Positions 793 through 14,362 of a DNA stretch of 16,152 nucleotides are shown piece by piece. Origin of the DNA: Calditrichaceae bacterium (GTDB lineage Bacteria > Calditrichota > Calditrichia > Calditrichales > JBFXGD01). The stretch covers positions 1-16,152 of the forward strand of contig JBFXGD010000068.1 of assembly GCA_050178385.1 (NCBI GenBank), given 5' to 3'. Position numbers and translations under genes: made by a program. Numbering within the stretch: position 1 is the stretch's first letter; every line of letters begins with the position of its first letter. The notes beneath the pieces are model-generated. The model did not search any database, was not told where the DNA came from, and was given only the letters and a program-made list of their open reading frames with translations.

Positions 793-2223
793 ATGACAAC
801 TGTCATTCAAAACAATCTTATCAAGCTCTTTGAAGAATGGGCGAATGAATCATTTTTAAAAATAAATCAGCTTCCCATGCAGGGATCCGACCGGCAGTAT
901 TTCCGGATTTCAGGACATAATAAAACGGCTGTCGGAGTTTATAATCCGGATCGTAAAGAAAATTCCGCTTTCATTGGTTTTTCAAAGCATTTTTCAGCCA
1001 AAGGGTTAAATGTCCCCGAAATTTATGCTGAGAATCCGGATAAAAGCTGTTATCTGATTCAGGATTTGGGCGACACCACTCTCTTCTCTTATCTGACGAC
1101 AAGCCGGGAATCCGGCGAGTTTCCACAACCCTTGATGAGCCTCTACAAAAAAGTAATCGACGCGCTTCCCCGATTCCAGATCGAGGGCGGCAGTGGAATC
1201 GATTACCGGCTCTGCTATCCCCGGGGCAGCTTTGACAGACAGTCCATGATGTGGGATCTTAATTATTTTAAATATTATTTTTTAAAACTGGCCAAAGTCC
1301 CATTTGATGAGCAAAAACTCGAAGACGATTTTCTAAAATTTACAGACTATCTGCTCGAAGCCGATCATGACTATTATATGTACCGGGATTTTCAGTCACG
1401 CAATATCATGATCCGGGACGATGAACCCTTTTTTATTGATTATCAGGGCGGCAGAAAAGGCCCTCTGCAGTATGATCTGGCTTCGCTCCTCTATGACGCG
1501 AAAGCGGATCTGCCAAATGATATCCGCCAGGAGCTGCTTGAAAGATACATGGAATCTATGGGACAATTTATTAATTTTGACCGCGATAAATTTCTCCGTC
1601 ATTATTACGGTTTTGTCCTTATCCGCATCATGCAGGCTTTGGGGGCTTATGGTTTCCGTGGATTTTATGAGCGCAAAGAGCATTTTTTACAGAGCGTCCC
1701 CTATGCCATTCAAAATCTCGAATGGGTACTCCGTAATACAGAGCTTCCCGTTGGCATCCCGGAACTTAAAAACGCCTGGGAACAAATGGTGCAAACCGCT
1801 GAGCTGCGCCAGTTTGGGCACCCTCAACTGCATCTGAATATACGCGTACAAAGTTTTTCGTATAGACGGGGGATCCCGGTGGATGAAAAAGGAAACGGCG
1901 GCGGTTTTGTTTTTGACTGCCGGTTGCTGCCCAATCCGGGGAGATATAATGAATATAAAGAACTAACCGGAAATGATCCTGAAGTTATTTCATTTCTTGA
2001 AAAAAAGGATGAAGTCGGTTCCTTCCTGGCCCACTTAAAAAAGGTGATTGATCAGGCAGTTGAATCCTATCAAAAACAGAATTATACGGATTTGATGATC
2101 GCGTTCGGCTGCACCGGAGGCCAGCACAGATCGGTTTATTGCGCGAATCAGATGGCATCACATCTCAAAGAAAAATATAATATCAGTGTGGATCTGCGGC
2201 ACCGGGAGCAGGAGAGGAAGTAA
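793..2223 (+). CDS. AmgK-like (APH-family) anomeric MurNAc/GlcNAc phosphotransferase fused to a RapZ C-terminal domain
   Basis: N-terminal kinase motifs GSDRQYFR, QDLGD, YRDFQSRNIM, IDYQG and GPLQYDLASLL. C-terminal part from about nt 1834 has SFSYRRGIP, FVFDCRLLPNP, LTGND, IAFGCTGGQHRSV and HRE, characteristic of the RapZ/YvcJ C-terminal domain. Adjacent to a MurU-like gene. Confidence 0.85.
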   Translation: MTTVIQNNLIKLFEEWANESFLKINQLPMQGSDRQYFRISGHNKTAVGVYNPDRKENSAFIGFSKHFSAKGLNVPEIYAENPDKSCYLIQDLGDTTLFSYLTTSRESGEFPQPLMSLYKKVIDALPRFQIEGGSGIDYRLCYPRGSFDRQSMMWDLNYFKYYFLKLAKVPFDEQKLEDDFLKFTDYLLEADHDYYMYRDFQSRNIMIRDDEPFFIDYQGGRKGPLQYDLASLLYDAKADLPNDIRQELLERYMESMGQFINFDRDKFLRHYYGFVLIRIMQALGAYGFRGFYERKEHFLQSVPYAIQNLEWVLRNTELPVGIPELKNAWEQMVQTAELRQFGHPQLHLNIRVQSFSYRRGIPVDEKGNGGGFVFDCRLLPNPGRYNEYKELTGNDPEVISFLEKKDEVGSFLAHLKKVIDQAVESYQKQNYTDLMIAFGCTGGQHRSVYCANQMASHLKEKYNISVDLRHREQERK

Positions 2224-2310
2224 AAACAAGAAAAAAGATAAAAGATAAAAGAAAAAAGAGAAGAAAGTAAAAAGCGTTAAGAGTTAAGAGTGCAAGAGTT
2301 ATGAGTAGGG
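2222..2310 (+). repeat. Purine-rich degenerate heptamer tracts (GATAAAA-type followed by GAGTTAA-type)
   Basis: gaaaaaa-gataaaa-gataaaa-gaaaaaa (2230-2257), then gcgttaa-gagttaa-gagtgcaa-gagttat-gagtagg (from 2274). Confidence 0.7.
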
Positions 2311-2327
2311 GTTGTTCCGGCAGCCCC
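2305..2327 (+). repeat. GTAG-type REP-like hairpin
   Basis: GTAGGGGTTG-ttccgg-CAGCCCC: starts with the GTAG tetranucleotide and forms a 7-bp stem with one G-T pair. Confidence 0.5.
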
Positions 2328-2340
2328 AAAATGTCATCCT

Positions 2341-2360
2341 GCCCGCCAGAGGCGGGTTTT
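2341..2360 (+). terminator. GC hairpin with short U tract; possible intrinsic terminator or REP-like palindrome
   Basis: CCCGCC-aga-GGCGGG followed by TTTT (2357-2360), 118 nt after the kinase stop codon. Confidence 0.4.
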
Positions 2361-2460
2361 AAGAAGAGGGATCTTTTGCTTACTTGGAAAAAACACGCTG
2401 TTGATCTAAAATTGATTGTTTAGATTCTTCGGGGCGAATTTTATGTGAAAGCAAAAGCAT

Positions 2461-2535
2461 TAACCCTCCCCTCGATCCCCTCCCTTATGCATAAGGGAGG
2501 GGAAGGGCATGATTTATCAGGCCCGGGGTGGGTTA
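2461..2535. repeat. REP-like composite palindrome
   Basis: Perfect 28-bp palindrome TCCCCTCCCTTATGCATAAGGGAGGGGA (2476-2503). Second hairpin GGGCATGATTTATCAGGCCC (2505-2524). Both are enclosed by an outer stem TAACCCTCCCC / GGGGTGGGTTA with one mismatch. Confidence 0.8.
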
Positions 2536-2538
2536 GAA

Positions 2539-2586
2539 GAAGTAGGAAGTAGGAAGTAGGAAGTAGGAAGTAGGAAGTAGGAAGTA
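2539..2586 (+). repeat. Tandem heptamer (GAAGTAG)x6 plus a partial seventh copy
   Basis: Six perfect GAAGTAG units at 2539-2580 followed by GAAGTA. Confidence 0.95.
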
Positions 2587-2630
2587 AAAAATAAGAAAAA
2601 AGATAAAAGAAGAAAGCCAAAACTTATTAA

Positions 2631-3371
2631 ATGAAAGCAATGATATTCGCGGCGGGCCTGGGTACAAGACTGCATCCTTTGACCGCGGCCAAACCAAAGG
2701 CTTTGGTTGAGGTCGGAGGCGTTCCAATGATTGACCTTCTGATCCGCCGGTTAATCCATTTTGGCTTCGATGAAATAATCATCAATGTTCATCATTTTGC
2801 CGATCAGATTATCTCCTTTATCAAATCAAAAAATTCTTACTATATCCGGATTGAGATATCGGTGGAAGATACTCTGCTCGATACTGGGGGCGGACTGCAA
2901 AAGGCAGCCTGGTTTTTTAATGACCAACAACCATTTCTGCTACATAACGTGGATGTTCTCTCTGATTTAGATTTAAAAAATTTAATGAATTACCATCAGC
3001 AGACCGGAGCTCTCGCCACTCTCGCGGTCAGGGATCGCAAAACATCACGCTATCTGCTTTTTGACAGGAACAATCAATTATGCGGCTGGAAATCTGTCAA
3101 AGAGGACAAAACCATCATTACCCGGCCGTCCGGAGACCTGATTCCCCTGTCATTTACGGGTATACAGCTGCTTAATCCTGAAATTTTGAACCTTTTTAAT
3201 GAAAATGCCCCTTTCCCGATTATTGATTTTTACCTCAGACTCGCGGGGATGAACAGGAATATTCAGGGTTTCAGGGATGATCATTCAAGATGGATTGATC
3301 TGGGAAATCCCGCAAATTTGGAACTTGCCGAAAAATTATTCAAAAATGATTTCAGAAACGATAAATTCTAA
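2631..3371 (+). CDS. Sugar-1-phosphate nucleotidyltransferase, MurU-like (MurNAc-alpha-1-P uridylyltransferase)
   Basis: MKAMIFAAGLGTRLHPLT...PKALVEV, LLDTGGGL, FLLHNVDV and WIDLG motifs; about 246 aa with no C-terminal beta-helix; directly downstream of an AmgK-like kinase. Confidence 0.85.
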   Translation: MKAMIFAAGLGTRLHPLTAAKPKALVEVGGVPMIDLLIRRLIHFGFDEIIINVHHFADQIISFIKSKNSYYIRIEISVEDTLLDTGGGLQKAAWFFNDQQPFLLHNVDVLSDLDLKNLMNYHQQTGALATLAVRDRKTSRYLLFDRNNQLCGWKSVKEDKTIITRPSGDLIPLSFTGIQLLNPEILNLFNENAPFPIIDFYLRLAGMNRNIQGFRDDHSRWIDLGNPANLELAEKLFKNDFRNDKF

Positions 3372-3607
3372 TCCTTGCTTTTTACACATAATTCTTTAAG
3401 TTTAAACGTAGCCATTACATACTTAAGAAATAATCTCATTAAAACGGACAATTTAATCTTTACATTGCGCATAAATTATTTTTGGGGGATTTACCTTGCA
3501 AGGTATTGCAGTGACGGTCATCATGGATAATTTTTCCATTCAGGATATATTGTTAAAACACTTCTCAAATCCGGCGGCAACCAATCATTTAATAGAACAG
3601 GATTTGA

Positions 3608-4015
3608 ATGGATTCTCCAGCTGAAAGACGAACATTGCACAGGATTGAATTACCCGGAACAAAAGTATTGTATAAAAAGCCCGGGGGTATTGATTTTTTT
3701 AATACTTATTCAAAACCTGTGGAATTGATTAATATCTCAAAAGGCGGTATGTGCATCACGGTTACCGAATCCTTTGAATTTGGTGATTCTGTGGCCATGA
3801 AAGTCTATTTCCCTGATGGTGAAAAATTGAAATTAAAAGGCCAGGTACGCTGGCATAAACCCGAATTAACCAATGGTTCATATACGGTGGGAATACAGTT
3901 TTTTGCTTTTGGATATCAAAGAAAATACAATTCCGTCAAAGCCCTCGATTATCTCCGCACCCTTAAAGATCAAACCCTGTCGGCAGCGCAGCAAAAAGTG
4001 AATTCCGAAACCTGA
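3608..4015 (+). CDS. Stand-alone PilZ domain protein (putative c-di-GMP receptor)
   Basis: N-terminal ERRTLHR (RxxxR), then NISKGG ((D/N)xSxxG), LKGQVRW and YTVGIQF strands. Confidence 0.85.
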   Translation: MDSPAERRTLHRIELPGTKVLYKKPGGIDFFNTYSKPVELINISKGGMCITVTESFEFGDSVAMKVYFPDGEKLKLKGQVRWHKPELTNGSYTVGIQFFAFGYQRKYNSVKALDYLRTLKDQTLSAAQQKVNSET

Positions 4016-4195
4016 TCAAAATTATTCATCGATATCGATTTTGTAAAAATAACCATCGAACGGTCACCTGCCGGACATCCGGTTGAAATATAAATAGTTA
4101 AAAATCGGCAATGGTATGTTCGCATATCTCACCGGCCTTTTTTTTATTAGATTAAATTTTGGTTTATTATCATACTATCCTAAATCTCAAAGCGT

Positions 4196-5620: not shown

Positions 5621-6331
5621 ATGGATATTAATCTAACATATCAGGACTCTATAAGGCTGCTCAAAATCCTTATGGGACGCCATGATATTATTCCCGAAAT
5701 CAATTCAAAAAACAATCTGCTTACATATTTTGATGATGTGAATGAAAAAATATTTGATTTTCGTCCTCCTCTCCCTATTCCGCAGATCTCTGCGATCAGC
5801 GAATCCGCTCTTTTTTCTGAACTGCCGCTTGTCCTGCCGCCGCCCTACCTGATCTTATTGATTCAGGCGGGTAACAGCGCCCTTGCGTATATCAAAGAGG
5901 GTAAAATCGAAAAACATAAAGTAATAAAAAAATACATGGTCCGAAAAAAACAGGGCAAATCCCAGATATCCTATTTGAAAACAAAGGGAAAATCGCGCGC
6001 GGGTTCAAGAGTTCGGCTTGCGAACGCGGTGCTGTTTTTCGAAGAAATTAATGCAAAACTTCAGGAGTGGACAAAGGGGAACGAGGTCGGACGAATCCTT
6101 TACAGCTGGCCGGTGTCAATGTCGGAGCTGATTTATAATTCAAAAATTAAACCTCCTTTTGAAAAAAAAGACAGCCGTCTGATCAAAATACCGATGGATG
6201 TCAATATTCCAAACTTTGCTGAACTTCAGAGGGTTAACCGGTTCGTAATGAAGGGATATTTAAGGCAATACAAAGAAAATAACCTTGTCAAAGAAATGCT
6301 GGGAGAAATTGTGGATGGTTCGGACAAATAA
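5621..6331 (+). CDS. Bacterial Vms1/ANKZF1-like release factor 1 (bVLRF1) family protein
   Basis: ILLIQAGNSALA...HKVIKKYMVRKKQGKSQ...GKSRAGSRVRLAN aligns by eye with the Vms1/ANKZF1 core (HKxxxRYTxRxKQGGSQ...SAGxxLRxxN). C-terminal PPFEKKDSRLIKIP..V..PNFAELQRV also fits the family. Confidence 0.75.
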   Translation: MDINLTYQDSIRLLKILMGRHDIIPEINSKNNLLTYFDDVNEKIFDFRPPLPIPQISAISESALFSELPLVLPPPYLILLIQAGNSALAYIKEGKIEKHKVIKKYMVRKKQGKSQISYLKTKGKSRAGSRVRLANAVLFFEEINAKLQEWTKGNEVGRILYSWPVSMSELIYNSKIKPPFEKKDSRLIKIPMDVNIPNFAELQRVNRFVMKGYLRQYKENNLVKEMLGEIVDGSDK

Positions 6332-6397: not shown

Positions 6398-6919
6398 TTA
6401 GTTAGTTTTCCCGGCTTGTTTTACATTCCCTTTCGGACCTGTGCCGTCGCATTCACCCGATTCGCCGCCTAAGCCTTCTCCGCTCTGAATTTTACCCTGC
6501 ATATTACCATACTGATTCTGCATACCCGTTCCATCCGCGGGACGCACATAATCTTCATCCTGGCCATTTGGTATGCCGTCACCATCCGCATCCGGTGCGT
6601 TATCATTAAATCCGTCACCGTCTTCATCGATATACCCGCCGACTCCATGGCCGCCGCTCGCTTTGGGACCGGTGTAATCTTCATCTATGGCATTCGGAAT
6701 TCCGTCACCATCATGATCCGGCGCGTTGTCATTATATCCGTCGCCATTTTCGTCAACAAAATTGACTCTGGATTGAACCTGTGATTTAGTTTTCGTTGCT
6801 GTTTTCACCTGATTTTTGTAACGATTCTGATTTTTTACTTCAAGTGAATCCTGTGCATTGGCTTCCGCAAAAAAGGCCATAAGCAGTAAAGCCATGATAA
6901 ATCCTGTTAAGCGTTTCAT
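6398..6919 (-). CDS. Secreted low-complexity protein with duplicated DxDGDG (thrombospondin-3/EF-loop-like) putative Ca2+-binding repeats
   Basis: Start reassigned from 6991 to ATG 6919 (SD GGAGG at 6927-6931). MKRLTGFIMALLLMAFFAEANA-Q is a Sec signal peptide. Two 29-aa repeats: FVDENGDGYNDNAPDHDGDGIPNAIDEDY and YIDEDGDGFNDNAPDADGDGIPNGQDEDY. Confidence 0.8.
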   Translation of the reverse strand: MKRLTGFIMALLLMAFFAEANAQDSLEVKNQNRYKNQVKTATKTKSQVQSRVNFVDENGDGYNDNAPDHDGDGIPNAIDEDYTGPKASGGHGVGGYIDEDGDGFNDNAPDADGDGIPNGQDEDYVRPADGTGMQNQYGNMQGKIQSGEGLGGESGECDGTGPKGNVKQAGKTN

Positions 6920-6967
6920 TTTTAATCCTCCGATGATTAATGAGTATGTTAATTTATTACTCATTAA

Positions 6968-6984
6968 TGCCAATGCCGTGCCAA
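6968..6984 (-). promoter_or_regulatory. Sigma-54 (-24/-12) promoter
   Basis: Minus strand TTGGCACGGCATTGGCA: perfect TGGCACG, GG-N10-GC spacing, ending 49 nt upstream of ATG 6919. Confidence 0.75.
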
Positions 6985-7130
6985 AACCCATTACAGATTG
7001 TTTTTATTATATTTATGGATGTTATGTTTAAATGAGATATCATAATAATTCGACTTAATGGTAGATAAAAAACATTTCACGGTCGAATATTTCTGAATTA
7101 TTACATGTAAAATGGGAAAATTCATTATAA

Positions 7131-9973: not shown

Positions 9974-12900
9974 TTATTCCTTATTTGGTAAATCCTGCCC
10001 AACCGGGATGGTTTCTGCAGGCTTTTCTTTAACAAATATTCTGGTTTCAATTTTAGATTCATCGGTTCCGTCACTAACCGTGACTGTGATATTGCTTTCC
10101 CCCGCCTGATCTTCGGCAGGCGTCCATTTAAATTCACCTGATTTCGAATCCAGACTGGATCCGGCCGGCATTCCGCTGGCGGAATAGGACAGGTTATCGC
10201 CATCCGGATCATCAGCGGAATAAGAGAAGGTCAGCGTTGAACCGGCTTCGGTTTCTTTTGAAGAAGGCCCGCTGATCCCGGGTTTTCTGTTCACATTATT
10301 TACCGTTATATTTACCGTCTTCGATACTGATGTTTCTCCATCTGAAACATTAAATGCCACGCTATATTTACCGGATTGATCATAACCCGGTTTCCATGTA
10401 AAAAATCTGGATGGTTTATCAAAACCAGAGCCATTAGGCAGATTATCAACGGAGTAAATCAAAGTTGTGCCCTGATCATCGTCCGCCGCTTCTACTTTAA
10501 AACTAAGCTCCTTATTTTCATCTACCGGCTTGTCATTTAATTCGGTAAATTTTGGAGGACGGTTTACGTTTTCAACCGTTATATCAACGGAAGTAATTGA
10601 TTCAGCTTTTCCGTCACTTACTTTGAAAGATACCTTATATGTTCCGGCCTGCTCAAAACCCGGTTTCCAGGTAAAAGTCTTTTCCGCCGGATCAAAGGCG
10701 CTTCCATCCGGCAAATTTGCGGCCGAATAGGTTAAAGTATTATCCGTATCTTCATCCCTGGCGTTTACCATGAATGTCAGCTCTGAATTTTCCTTAACCG
10801 TTTGCGCGGCCAAATCCTGCATAACCGGCGCGCGATTAAGATCATCTATTATTATATTGCCGGTTTTAGTATCAGATAAACCTCCGGTATCCGTTACTTT
10901 ATATTCAATACTGAATTGACCTGCCTGCAGGAAATTTGGTTTCCATGTCAACAAGCCCGATTTTGAATCAAATACCGAACCTTCCGGCAATCCTGCGGCT
11001 TCAAAAATCAGATTGCCCTGATCCTCAGCATCAGGATCATTCGCGGTCAGATTAATCACCAGCTCAGTATTTTCAATTCCCTTTACTGCCGCCACAGCCG
11101 TCAGGACAGGCGGACGATCAACATGATTAACTTTGATATCAAAAGTTTTTTCGTCGGTCAAACCGCCGGGATCTGCAGCGGTAACTTTTATCCCCGGGTA
11201 CTCACCGGATTGATCAAACCCCGGTGTCCAGGTAAATACTCCGGATATCGGATCAAACACAGCGCCATTTGGTAAATTCAAAACAGATAATTTTATTTTC
11301 CCGTTATCTTCCTTATCCGGATCAGTAAAATTGATTTTTAGTGTCCATTTCGAATTTTCATCGATAGTCTGAGGCTCCAATACAGCAAGCTGCGGAGCCC
11401 TGTTTACATGATTAACGGTAATATTGAGCGGTTTTGTCACCGCAAACTCACCATCAGCTGCCTTTAAGGTTACCGTGTAGGTTCCCGATTGCTCAAATGT
11501 CGGTATCCATTCCAAATTTAAGGTCACCGGATCAAATGACGCGCCTTTCGGTAAATTCTCAGTCGAATAAATTATTTTCCCGGCATCTTCTTTATCCGGA
11601 TCGGTTGCCGGAATAAGCGCGTACTTAAGATCCGCATTTTCATCGATAGTCTGTGCCGTCTGATCCGCAAAAACCGGTGTTCGGTTAACATGGTTAACAG
11701 TAATATTCAGATTCTTGGTTACAGATAAGCCCTGTGGATCAGTATTTGTCAAATTGATGACATAAGCGCCGGATTGTTCAAACGTCGGTGTCCATGAAAA
11801 TTCTCCCGTCGCAGAATTGAATACCGCGCCTTCGGGCATACCGGCCGCGGATAAAATCCATTTACCTGCGTCTTCCTTATCAGGATCAGAGGCCGTGGTT
11901 TTAACGGTCAGAAGCACATTTTCATTGACCGTCTTATCGGAAATATCCGCCAGGACTGGCATACGGTTGACATGATTTACAGTGATCACGGTTTTCTTTT
12001 TATCGGTCAATCGACCATCGCTTACGGTAAATTCAACCGTGTATGTGCCTGACTGTTCAAAAGTTGGCGTCCAACTGAAAGCCTGACCTTCCAGGATCGC
12101 CCCTTCCGGAAGTCCGCTGGCTGAATAGATCAGTTTACCGGTATCCTCAATATCCGGATCCGAACCGCTAAGACTGAATGTCAGAGGCGCATTTTCATCG
12201 ACAATCTTCGGTTCAAGCGCGGCAAGTACCGGCGGACGGTTTACATGTTCCACCGAAATATTCATGGTTTTACTTTCTTCCAGACCGGCCACATCTTTCA
12301 CCGTAAAAGTAATATTCTGATATTCGCCGGACTGTTCATAATCCGGTACCCAGCTAAACATAAGAGAATCCGGATTAAATTTTGAGCCTTTTGGTAAATT
12401 TGCAGCGCTGTATTTTAATTTTCCCACATCTTCTTTGTCAGGATCGCTTCCGGAAATACTAAACGTTAGCAGACTGTTTTCTTTTACAACTTTATCATTC
12501 AAATCTGCAAGAACCGGTGGACGATTAACATTTGCCACGGATATATCAACATTAATTGAATCACTCATGGCTCCGGCCTTAAAAATGAACAACAGCTTTT
12601 TATACTCGCCTGATTGATCATAAGTCGGTGTCCAGGAAAATTCTGCCGTCGCCGGATTAAATTCAGATCCCGCGGGCAGATTTTGAGCAAGATAACTCAA
12701 TTTATCCTGATCTTCTCTGTCAGGATCACTCCCGTTCAATGTAAATCTTACAGCGTTTGCTTCATTGGCAGCGATAGGCATTATTGGTTCAAGCGTTGGT
12801 TTTCTGTCAATATGACGAACAGTAATCGTCGCGCCCTCTCGCATCAATGCTCCCGGCGGATCATGAATCAGAAAATCTATGGTGTAAACTCCGGACTGCT

Positions 12901-14362
12901 CAAAAGTAGGCGTCCAGTTGAATTTCCTGGTTTTTGGATCAAAGATAGCGCCTTCGGGCAAACTTTCCGCCGTGTAGGTCAACAGTCCCTTATCTTCCTT
13001 GTCCGGATCAGATCCTTCAGGAACAACAAAGGCAAGAGGTTTATTCTCATCGATGTCATAATCGGGGATTTCCGGAATGGACGGAGGTCTGTTCACATGG
13101 ATCACATTGATAGCAAAAGTCGTTGGTGTTGTAAGTTCACTCGCTGTGCGTTCGATGACTTTAATCGTCACTCCGGGATAATCACCGGATTGTTCATAGT
13201 CCGGAGTCCATGAAAACGCGCCGCTTAATGTATCGAACACGGCGCCCTTAGGCAGATTCTCTATCTCAAAATGTATCGCGTCGCCATCGGGATCGAAAGC
13301 TTCCGCCTGTAATGCAAGAGTAACATTTTCATCGACTGTCTGATTTTCTATTTGCGTTATTACCGGCGGATGATTGTGTCTGACAATAATCGTTTTATCA
13401 TCCGCTGCGATGTATACATAAACATCGTTTTTCCATACAGCATACACCTTACCTTCAGAAACATAATCCGCTTCCTTGACCGGCTTTTTAAGATCGGTAA
13501 CATCTACAATTTCAAGTTTTCTTCTAAGTTCATTTGCAAGATATAGCGAATTACCGGCCTTATACGCGTTGTACACATAACCATCGATCGGTACCCTGGA
13601 AATTAATGAAGGAAATTTCGGATTGGTGACATTCACTATCCAGAGACCGTCGGGACCATTGGCAACATAAGCGGTACCATTGTCCACCTGGACGGTTTTT
13701 GCGTTACTCATCTGCGCGTATTGCCCGAGCCGCACCGGTAATGCAGGATTTGAAATATCCAGTATAATCAGTCCGCCGTTTTTATCAGCCACATATAATA
13801 TTGAACCATCAATGAAAAGTCCCCACGCCCAGCGCGGTGTATCATAGTTCCCGATTAGCTTAGGCGCGTTGAGATCACTGATATCATATATATTAACTCC
13901 AAGCAGTTCTTCCGCGACATATACATAAGGATACTCTGCCACGACCCAGAAAGCATCGCCTTTCGTCCGGATTCTCCCAACGGAAACGATATCGGAAGGA
14001 TTTGAAATATCCAGAATTTCAACTCCGTATAATTCTTCGGACATGTATGCGTATTTATCATGAACAAATACGTTGTGCGCACGATGCTCTGATCTGTAAA
14101 CTCCCAATTCCCGGGGATTCTCAGGACTTGTTACATCAAGAACCTGAAGTCCCGACCAGACATTCGTGACATATAAACGAAAATCTTTAAAAAAGATATT
14201 CTGAATACCATCATTTACCTGTTCTCCTGTCAGCAATTTGGCAGGTTCTTTGGAACTGATAAACTCAGCGCTGGCTTTTTGTCCATAGGTCGGATGAGTA
14301 AGAATTAAACCGAATAAAAAAACAAATAGTAGATTCCGGAACATGCGTCCTCTGGAATTCAT
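9974..14362 (-). CDS. Large exported protein: LVIVD-repeat beta-propeller plus 12 tandem putative-Ig/cadherin-like domains (adhesin-like)
   Basis: Signal-peptide-like N-terminus (MFRNLLFVFLFGLILTHPTYG). Six full and one partial LVIVD-like repeat (YVA...GLxILDISNP). From residue 330, 12 repeats of about 90-96 aa with N/D-R-x-P...EN...DPD...LP-x-G...W-T-P...Q-S-G-x-Y. SD AGGAG upstream. Confidence 0.9.
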   Translation of the reverse strand: MNSRGRMFRNLLFVFLFGLILTHPTYGQKASAEFISSKEPAKLLTGEQVNDGIQNIFFKDFRLYVTNVWSGLQVLDVTSPENPRELGVYRSEHRAHNVFVHDKYAYMSEELYGVEILDISNPSDIVSVGRIRTKGDAFWVVAEYPYVYVAEELLGVNIYDISDLNAPKLIGNYDTPRWAWGLFIDGSILYVADKNGGLIILDISNPALPVRLGQYAQMSNAKTVQVDNGTAYVANGPDGLWIVNVTNPKFPSLISRVPIDGYVYNAYKAGNSLYLANELRRKLEIVDVTDLKKPVKEADYVSEGKVYAVWKNDVYVYIAADDKTIIVRHNHPPVITQIENQTVDENVTLALQAEAFDPDGDAIHFEIENLPKGAVFDTLSGAFSWTPDYEQSGDYPGVTIKVIERTASELTTPTTFAINVIHVNRPPSIPEIPDYDIDENKPLAFVVPEGSDPDKEDKGLLTYTAESLPEGAIFDPKTRKFNWTPTFEQSGVYTIDFLIHDPPGALMREGATITVRHIDRKPTLEPIMPIAANEANAVRFTLNGSDPDREDQDKLSYLAQNLPAGSEFNPATAEFSWTPTYDQSGEYKKLLFIFKAGAMSDSINVDISVANVNRPPVLADLNDKVVKENSLLTFSISGSDPDKEDVGKLKYSAANLPKGSKFNPDSLMFSWVPDYEQSGEYQNITFTVKDVAGLEESKTMNISVEHVNRPPVLAALEPKIVDENAPLTFSLSGSDPDIEDTGKLIYSASGLPEGAILEGQAFSWTPTFEQSGTYTVEFTVSDGRLTDKKKTVITVNHVNRMPVLADISDKTVNENVLLTVKTTASDPDKEDAGKWILSAAGMPEGAVFNSATGEFSWTPTFEQSGAYVINLTNTDPQGLSVTKNLNITVNHVNRTPVFADQTAQTIDENADLKYALIPATDPDKEDAGKIIYSTENLPKGASFDPVTLNLEWIPTFEQSGTYTVTLKAADGEFAVTKPLNITVNHVNRAPQLAVLEPQTIDENSKWTLKINFTDPDKEDNGKIKLSVLNLPNGAVFDPISGVFTWTPGFDQSGEYPGIKVTAADPGGLTDEKTFDIKVNHVDRPPVLTAVAAVKGIENTELVINLTANDPDAEDQGNLIFEAAGLPEGSVFDSKSGLLTWKPNFLQAGQFSIEYKVTDTGGLSDTKTGNIIIDDLNRAPVMQDLAAQTVKENSELTFMVNARDEDTDNTLTYSAANLPDGSAFDPAEKTFTWKPGFEQAGTYKVSFKVSDGKAESITSVDITVENVNRPPKFTELNDKPVDENKELSFKVEAADDDQGTTLIYSVDNLPNGSGFDKPSRFFTWKPGYDQSGKYSVAFNVSDGETSVSKTVNITVNNVNRKPGISGPSSKETEAGSTLTFSYSADDPDGDNLSYSASGMPAGSSLDSKSGEFKWTPAEDQAGESNITVTVSDGTDESKIETRIFVKEKPAETIPVGQDLPNKE
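10022..13375 (-). repeat. Twelve diverged ~280-nt coding repeats (Ig/cadherin-like domains)
   Basis: Repeat starts read from the translation: NHPP, NRPP, DRKP, NRPP, NRPP, NRMP, NRTP, NRAP, DRPP, NRAP, NRPP, NRKP. Confidence 0.9.

Follow-up and report, generated by a model that had tools for sequence, protein, structure and literature searches.

The DNA analyzed here, a window of 16,152 nucleotides from a Calditrichaceae bacterium, encodes a genuine, intact member of the catalogued bVLRF1 family, a small stand-alone protein predicted to fold most like yeast Vms1. By analogy with Vms1, we propose that this protein could act as an accessory tRNA-CCA endonuclease on split 50S-peptidyl-tRNA complexes, with repair of the cut tRNA by the HD-domain CCA-adding enzyme of the host; we give this reading a probability of about 0.55. 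Literature searches, subscription journals and preprint supplements aside, brought up no experimental work on a bacterial VLRF1, and we infer the function of bVLRF1 in tRNA cleavage or ribosome rescue from its kinship to Vms1.

Family Assignment and Predicted Fold

The bVLRF1 open reading frame starts with ATG, contains no internal stop codons, and encodes a stand-alone protein of 236 a.a. between stop codons (Table 1). A Pfam scan places it in a single family, bVLRF1 (PF18826), at 109.7 bits against a curated cut-off of 27 bits (E-value 1.5e-31; residues 77-210 aligned to positions 2-138 of a profile of 145), and an NCBIfam scan assigns no family. There is no Pfam match to RF-1 or eRF1, the loop reading GKSQ with no GGQ, nor to a zinc finger, ankyrin repeats, or VIM. 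A sequence search yielded 1308 homologues at E ≤ 1e-3 from 1576 candidates; fetched homologues are 199-255 a.a. long (5-95% range), for which 236 a.a. is typical, and the nearest named relative (L014, 81%) is also from the Calditrichaceae. The gene is under purifying selection, since its dN/dS against a same-genus orthologue, also of 236 a.a., is 0.24, with 97% identity between the two over residues 98-133. When the PDB was searched with the single sequence, yeast Vms1 chains were the sole matches (E-value about 1e-3); with a profile built from 118 homologues, the Vms1 chains reached E-values of 1.6e-11 to 3e-11, and nothing else fell below 0.1.

Table 1. Sequence features of the bVLRF1 gene and its immediate surroundings (window positions).
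Feature	Position	Strand	Basis
bVLRF1 gene, stand-alone Vms1-like release-factor-fold protein	5621..6331	+	ORF, PF18826, AlphaFold2 pLDDT 89.9, dN/dS 0.24
N-terminal extension, residues 1-76 (predicted helix 7-19 and strands 26-48)	5621..5848	+	model secondary structure, Vms1 structural alignment
VLRF1 domain (eRF1 middle-domain, RNase H-like fold), residues 77-210	5849..6250	+	Pfam, Foldseek, VIA
Putative catalytic loop, Y105-Q115, with R108 (5942-5944), G112, and Q115 (5963-5965)	5933..5965	+	ungapped Vms1 alignment
Basic motif G123-R132 (GKSRAGSRVR), entering long helix 127-151	5987..6016	+	invariant S125, G128, R130, R132
Terminator-like hairpin of the convergent downstream gene, after the bVLRF1 stop codon	6336..6361	-	10-pair stem and T run

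The AlphaFold2 model of the protein is confident overall. It predicts a VLRF1 core in the order strands 76-82, 85-92, and 95-103, loop, and helix 127-151, preceded by an N-terminal extension with strands 26-28, 33-37, and 43-48. Superposition of this model returned Vms1 first by two routes: Foldseek ranks 1-4 are all Vms1, and Vms1 also heads a wide structure search (6r86_R; VIA Z 11.7, rmsd 3.4, 170 aligned), in which aRF1 follows at Z 10.9. The structural alignment runs from model residues 2-217 to Vms1 residues 13-397 (end points only), and among the top 20 rows of the wide search only those of Vms1 reach the N-terminal extension. An extension of ~70 a.a. had been claimed by the initial annotation; it is present, with about 76 a.a. 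before the Pfam domain, and is a trait of the bVLRF1 family, for which two conserved N-terminal strands have been described (PMC6514570, supplement). The model has no codon-recognition domain, Pelota C-terminal domain, or mRNA-channel tail.

With an above-cut-off VLRF1 profile match and a Vms1-like predicted fold, the family assignment of the initial annotation is borne out, neither of the outcomes that it named as refuting having arisen. The eukaryote-like quality-control or tRNA-cleaving activity that it proposed is the best supported of the putative functions, but comes as less of a surprise than it suggested: Pfam already has a model for the family, and its members have been listed in print (PMC6514570, supplement). 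Nor is the family annotated only as hypothetical, as had been expected, for UniRef labels its relatives "VLRF1 domain-containing protein."

Compared with known systems, the window protein resembles other bVLRF1 proteins in score, stand-alone form, length, N-terminal strands, and GxuQ loop, and differs in its host lineage, Calditrichota being missing from the list as given in PMC6514570. With yeast Vms1 and human ANKZF1 it has in common the fold and a set of loop residues at 13-16% structural identity. Vms1 and ANKZF1, however, are multi-domain proteins with a zinc finger, ankyrin repeats, and VIM, none of which is found in the window protein; the Vms1 loop reads GGSQ rather than GKSQ, there is no ubiquitin system here, and CCA cleavage, which is known for the eukaryotic proteins, is putative for the bacterial one. 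The eRF1/aRF1 middle domain, Pelota, and Balon have the RNase H-like core in common with it (model residues 70-212, with Z of 7.5-10.9), whereas the window protein is without GGQ, stop-codon domain, or C-terminal domain, and these matches leave its N-terminal extension uncovered. Balon and baeRF1 are three-domain proteins with no conserved Gln and an HPF neighborhood, in contrast to the single domain, extension, and invariant Gln found here.

The Putative Catalytic Loop and Basic Motif

In an ungapped alignment, Y105, R108, K110, G112, S114, and Q115 correspond to Y285, R288, K290, G292, S294, and Q295 of Vms1, the numbering of which is anchored on bioRxiv 10.1101/301341. According to the same source, mutants of Vms1 R288, G292, and Q295 lose function, and Y285A has a partial defect. 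The bacterial counterparts of these critical residues are all kept: Y105, R108, G112, and Q115, together with S125, G128, R130, and R132, show no variation in any of the 118 homologues aligned (120 listed homologues minus two fragments), which argues at the sequence level for the endonuclease reading. The loop motif was found in 355 of the 360 fetched proteins, and GKSQ is the norm in the family. The retained catalytic loop of the initial annotation thus holds up, with its Gln kept, its coordinates exact (nt 5933 is the first nucleotide of Y105 and nt 5965 the last of Q115), and GKSRAGSRVR present downstream. Residues 111-130 have low pLDDT (60-69), and the model therefore suggests that this region is flexible. 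The basic motif probably contacts rRNA or tRNA; arginines at the corresponding helix of aeRF1 proteins bind large-subunit rRNA (PMC6514570). Two relatives, P0219 and P0345, carry Glu in place of the loop Gln along with an altered downstream basic motif, and are possibly an inactive or re-purposed subgroup.

Instead of cutting the tRNA, Q115 could position a water molecule as in eRF1, which would make bVLRF1 a peptidyl-tRNA ester hydrolase that acts on the split 50S subunit and leaves the tRNA intact. An invariant Gln within GxuQ, argued to be a peptidyl hydrolase or release-factor loop (PMC6514570), would suit this activity, as would eRF1/aRF1 folds lying within 1 Z of Vms1 and the lack of a conserved repair neighbor. 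We nevertheless consider it unlikely, given that later work on Vms1/ANKZF1 reports CCA cleavage (PMC7026593), that a Tyr and an Arg matching Vms1 Y285 and R288 are still found in the bacterial loop, and that a fusion to a CCA enzyme, described below, would have no rationale if the tRNA stayed intact.

A non-catalytic factor for ribosome binding or hibernation, like the aeRF1-fold protein Balon, is very improbable. Balon chains do match the fold (Z 8.8-9.4; Foldseek E-value about 2e-4), and the Glu-bearing P0219 and P0345 would fit such a role, yet none of the Tyr, Arg, Gly, and Gln of the loop varies across the alignment; Balon chains are moreover about 360 a.a. long, multi-domain, and ranked under Vms1, and neither an HPF match nor another recognizable hibernation factor occurs among 65 scanned neighbors of bVLRF1 genes.

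Rescue, Quality-Control, and tRNA-Repair Genes of the Host

A survey of the host genome (G000, 94% complete), as proposed in the initial annotation, found RqcH (554 a.a.), a 148-a.a. ArfB-like protein, RtcB, and one CCA-adding enzyme, which has an HD domain and is encoded away from the bVLRF1 locus. RF1, RF2, Pth, SmpB, tmRNA, and MutS2 (783 bits) are also encoded, and there is no match to ArfA. A short RqcP-like S4 protein was not found in this 94% complete genome, the 4 matches lying in frames of 205-419 a.a. Compared with the machinery for ribosome-associated quality control (RQC) of Bacillus subtilis (MutS2, RqcH, RqcP/YlmH, and Pth), the host has MutS2, RqcH, and Pth. No canonical RNase Z scores over the cut-off in G000 or in two further host-order genomes, G001 and the single-contig G002. 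By our reading of the annotation, CCA is encoded in 2 of the 40 tRNA genes of G000 and not in the other 38, so CCA addition is routine in the host cell. Two further loci were observed in this genome: a tRNA-Sec gene (G000:C55:16057-16149) on the same contig as rqcH, and an RF2 frame without the usual N-terminus (G000:C49:12507-13505), which we take to be consistent with a programmed prfB frameshift.

Co-Occurrence with RqcH and ArfB

RqcH is present in 48 of 50 bVLRF1-carrying genomes chosen from 80 loci, and in 12 of 13 carriers of the host order, compared with 301 of 401 random Bacteroidota (48/50 vs. 301/401, p 3e-4, the carriers being hand-picked and kin not independent). Within one Cytophagales family, RqcH occurs at equal frequency in carriers (84/87; 84/86 without G574) and non-carriers (112/114; Fisher p 0.65), and the excess of RqcH among carriers is therefore lineage-driven. 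A random sample of the phylum likewise gave 5 of 6 carriers against 295 of 394 non-carriers (p 1.0). Strict dependence on RqcH finds no support in these counts, as the excess is gone within the family and in the random sample. In two genomes, G214 and G636, the bVLRF1 loop is intact and neither the NFACT-N nor the NFACT-R model matches an RqcH; G214 is near single-contig, with 4.66 of 4.7 Mb in one contig. Prokaryotic VLRF1s have been said to occur independently of RQC components (PMC6514570); this statement, in the form given there, understates the frequency of RqcH among carriers, and dependence is likewise unsupported.

ArfB, counted at E ≤ 1e-30 such that matches just above the cut-off may be missed, was found in 62 of 87 carriers and 49 of 114 non-carriers of the 201-genome family sample, in which kin are not independent. 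Replacement of ArfB by bVLRF1 was rejected, ArfB being commoner in carriers with no mutual exclusion. This bears on whether bVLRF1 could stand in for ArfB or ArfA by rescuing intact non-stop 70S ribosomes as a single component, which we judge to be improbable. Such a factor would explain why bVLRF1 is stand-alone, patchy, and sometimes without RqcH, single-component action has been suggested (PMC6514570), and the host has no ArfA match; against this, the host has ArfB, tmRNA, and SmpB, ArfB is not excluded by bVLRF1 in the family sample, and the model has neither a codon-recognition domain nor an mRNA-channel tail.

Distribution and Descent

Carriage of bVLRF1 is patchy: 13 of 31 host-order relatives, 18 of 86 genomes of the host phylum (Calditrichota), 7 of 401 Bacteroidota (the center genome included), 87 of the 201 genomes sampled from one family of Cytophagales, with a Cyclobacteriaceae record among them (an unpublished carrier, G574, counts in the family tallies alone), and none of 14 control genomes. 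Cultured carriers are found in Pontibacter, Algoriphagus, and Cyclobacterium. The published bVLRF1 list, as given in the supplement of PMC6514570, comprises Bacteroidetes, Lentisphaera, one proteobacterium, one planctomycete, one Heimdallarchaeon, and green algae; Calditrichota is absent from it, the one Caldithrix row elsewhere in that supplement being a 405-a.a. protein. On a quick tree, host-phylum bVLRF1 rows need 5 changes, and the window protein shares a group (SH-aLRT 96) with two sequences from Spirochaetota and two without a name. Because of these two results, the tree suggests that bVLRF1 has spread by transfer and loss, and no donor is claimed.

Patchy spread and signs of horizontal transfer would also be expected of a tRNA-cutting toxin or defense effector that stands apart from housekeeping. 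We give this only the slightest chance, for there is one bVLRF1 copy per genome, the GC content of the gene (0.407) is close to that of the genome (0.418), no bVLRF1 match was found in viral contigs or plasmids, and no antitoxin-like or defense neighbor is conserved.

Gene Neighborhood

A dicarboxylate symporter gene lies upstream of bVLRF1 across a 91-bp gap, and bVLRF1 converges on a 197-a.a. ORF downstream. The hairpin between the converging genes has a fold z of -3.04 on the minus strand, against 0.34 on the plus strand. Folding of the 91-bp gap is not significant (z -0.37), and its 5 promoter-like matches are fewer than in shuffles (mean 8.0). An operon with the symporter was rejected as a functional clue, the pairing being confined to the host, a same-genus relative, and near-identical records. 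Among the 12 other large window ORFs, Pfam and NCBIfam identified no RNA-repair, translation, or rescue gene (3 of the 12 have no Pfam match, one of these having a weak NCBIfam match only). The initial remark that no repair partner is adjacent is thus true within the window, but it is uninformative, because no neighbor is conserved and a candidate repair enzyme is encoded elsewhere in the genome.

Gene order around bVLRF1 is kept within the genus only, and a conserved neighborhood was rejected on surveys of 81 and 186 loci. The commonest neighbor clusters at the 81 loci are of a generic kind, two-component proteins at 13 loci and SDR proteins at 10, and no co-oriented neighbor cluster occurs in more than 6 of the 186 loci, which are partly redundant and many of them short. 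Pfam scans of 65 neighbors (60 of 64 cluster representatives plus 5 other frequent neighbors) returned unrelated metabolic, transport, and envelope genes; the 4 unscanned representatives were judged by sequence or window homology to be a symporter, an SDR protein, an aminotransferase, and what we assume to be a signal peptidase-like protein. In tblastn searches of the 186 loci, CCA, RtcB, and Pth queries gave no match near bVLRF1 and the RqcH query gave one, at L154; the same search for repair or rescue neighbors at 10 further loci gave none.

At L154 (L154:632-1390 and 3557-4105), an RqcH homologue lies ~2.2 kb from bVLRF1 with an unknown 402-a.a. gene between them. In G002, and in this one host-order genome only, a RelA/SpoT-domain and TPR protein (L005:139-1419, minus strand) adjoins bVLRF1 and is co-oriented with it. 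Related Bacteroidia MAGs (L018, L024, L030, L031, L033, L066, and L086) carry a 330-a.a. gene in the vicinity of bVLRF1 and on the other strand, which in five of these seven loci is paired with a 120-a.a. gene; the pair resembles, to our eye, a toxin-antitoxin pair. In the window itself, the 197-a.a. ORF (6398-6991, minus strand) has a likely signal peptide, repeated DxDxDG motifs, and no Pfam match; it has look-alikes in clusters without a name from Ignavibacteriota, Aminicenantota, and Calditrichota, there are weak leads to TSP3, and it might bind calcium. Positions 793-3371 (plus strand) encode a fusion of an AmgK-like kinase with a RapZ C-terminal domain and, after it, a MurU-like nucleotidyltransferase; both score below equivalog cut-offs and look like a peptidoglycan-recycling pair. 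Positions 9974-14362 (minus strand) encode a surface protein of 1462 a.a. that has LVIVD repeats as well as about 12 repeats of an Ig/cadherin-like type.

A Possible bVLRF1-CCA Fusion

One distant homologue, P0140 (MBF0301121.1; 395 a.a.), carries bVLRF1 (111 bits, residues about 33-240) followed in frame by a complete PolyA_pol head domain (69 bits), the CCA head at about residues 263-395. This single record is of a partial protein, encoded on a 3544-bp contig of an Oligoflexia MAG; it was found by profile search among the 150 matches listed of 1503, and is the only one of 360 fetched proteins longer than 290 a.a., the searches having had length windows. Its best NCBIfam match, below the full-length cut-off, is "multifunctional CCA addition/repair protein." The bVLRF1 part stops where stand-alone homologues stop, and the CCA part starts with its own Met. 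Either P0140 is a genuine fusion, or two abutting genes have been joined in it by error (a frameshift artefact or mis-join), and both readings imply gene adjacency, unless the contig is chimeric. The templating motif EDxxR reads EDxxS in P0140, possibly a sign of decay; CCA enzymes can tolerate loss of the arginine of this motif (PMC2532741). The CCA part is predicted with pLDDT <50, a low confidence due to few aligned sequences, and this fold was set aside.

By a rough, post hoc estimate on one record, a random fusion partner would be cca about once per several thousand, and would fall among about ten pre-named repair or rescue genes once per few hundred, this second figure being equally rough and post hoc. 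No second bVLRF1 fusion was found among proteins of 467-2000 a.a. (a weak search), in the best 120 of 245 matches of 217-692 a.a., or, for metagenomes, in the best 80 matches out of 331, and neither a second fusion nor a cca neighbor appeared in 186 plus 10 loci. The bVLRF1 clade has been said to be without genuine fusions (PMC6514570, supplement), to which P0140 is a possible exception. The fusion hints that bacteria use bVLRF1 as eukaryotes use Vms1.

Proposed Mechanism

In eukaryotes, Vms1/ANKZF1 binds in the large-subunit A site and removes CCA from peptidyl-tRNA; the cut end carries a cyclic phosphate, and the CCA enzyme then recycles the tRNA (PMC7026593); in human cells, healing is reported to be by ELAC1. 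The HD domain of the E. coli CCA enzyme removes 2',3'-cyclic phosphates (PMC6961547, citing Yakunin 2004). For the bacterial protein, we infer ribosome binding, substrate, cleavage chemistry, and repair route as follows. A stalled 70S ribosome would be split, possibly by the MutS2 encoded in the genome, into a 50S subunit holding peptidyl-tRNA, on which RqcH may add an alanine tail. The basic helix of bVLRF1 would enter the empty 50S A site, such that the loop with Y105, R108, G112, and Q115 could reach the acceptor end of the tRNA. Cutting off the terminal CCA would free the nascent chain and leave a tRNA with a 2',3'-cyclic phosphate, which the HD domain of the host CCA enzyme would heal before CCA is rebuilt, which would make this enzyme a one-protein equivalent of human ELAC1 and TRNT1. 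bVLRF1 would then be a dispensable add-on to Pth, ArfB, and tmRNA, and not an obligate partner of RqcH.

Beyond the loop residues, the endonuclease reading is favored by Vms1 being the closest solved fold to the predicted model, by the partner in P0140 being the very enzyme predicted from the eukaryotic pathway, by the frequent presence of RqcH in carriers, and by a host genome with MutS2, RqcH, and HD-CCA and no RNase Z over the cut-off. Against it stand the lineage-explained co-occurrence with RqcH and the carriers G214 and G636, as well as the nature of P0140, a single partial record with EDxxS and no second fusion found. In addition, the host encodes Pth, which in B. subtilis has been reported to release tailed chains (cited in PMC11317155).

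Significance

Termination has been described as the least understood step of RQC, with no dedicated termination factor known in bacteria (as stated in PMC11317155). It is tempting, although on balance somewhat doubtful, to view bVLRF1 as a dedicated bacterial RQC terminator of Calditrichota, Cytophagales, and scattered lineages, i.e., a Vms1-type CCA endonuclease acting on 50S-bound peptidyl-tRNA and coupled to HD-CCA repair, a coupling to which the fusion in P0140 would point. bVLRF1 is the proposed source of eukaryotic Vms1, and the ancestral activity of VLRF1, hydrolase or nuclease, was disputed in print (PMC6514570). The gene in the window is ordinary for its family, and its value is that of a test case: with a small, single-domain protein and an invariant loop, the questions of how RQC ends and of VLRF1 ancestry become testable on bacterial ribosomes. 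The fusion, together with HD-CCA enzymes in hosts lacking RNase Z, predicts tRNAs shortened by 3 nt and ending in a cyclic phosphate, which would be repaired by Cca alone. If bVLRF1 is such an RQC terminator, the eukaryotic cut-and-repair cycle would be older than eukaryotes.
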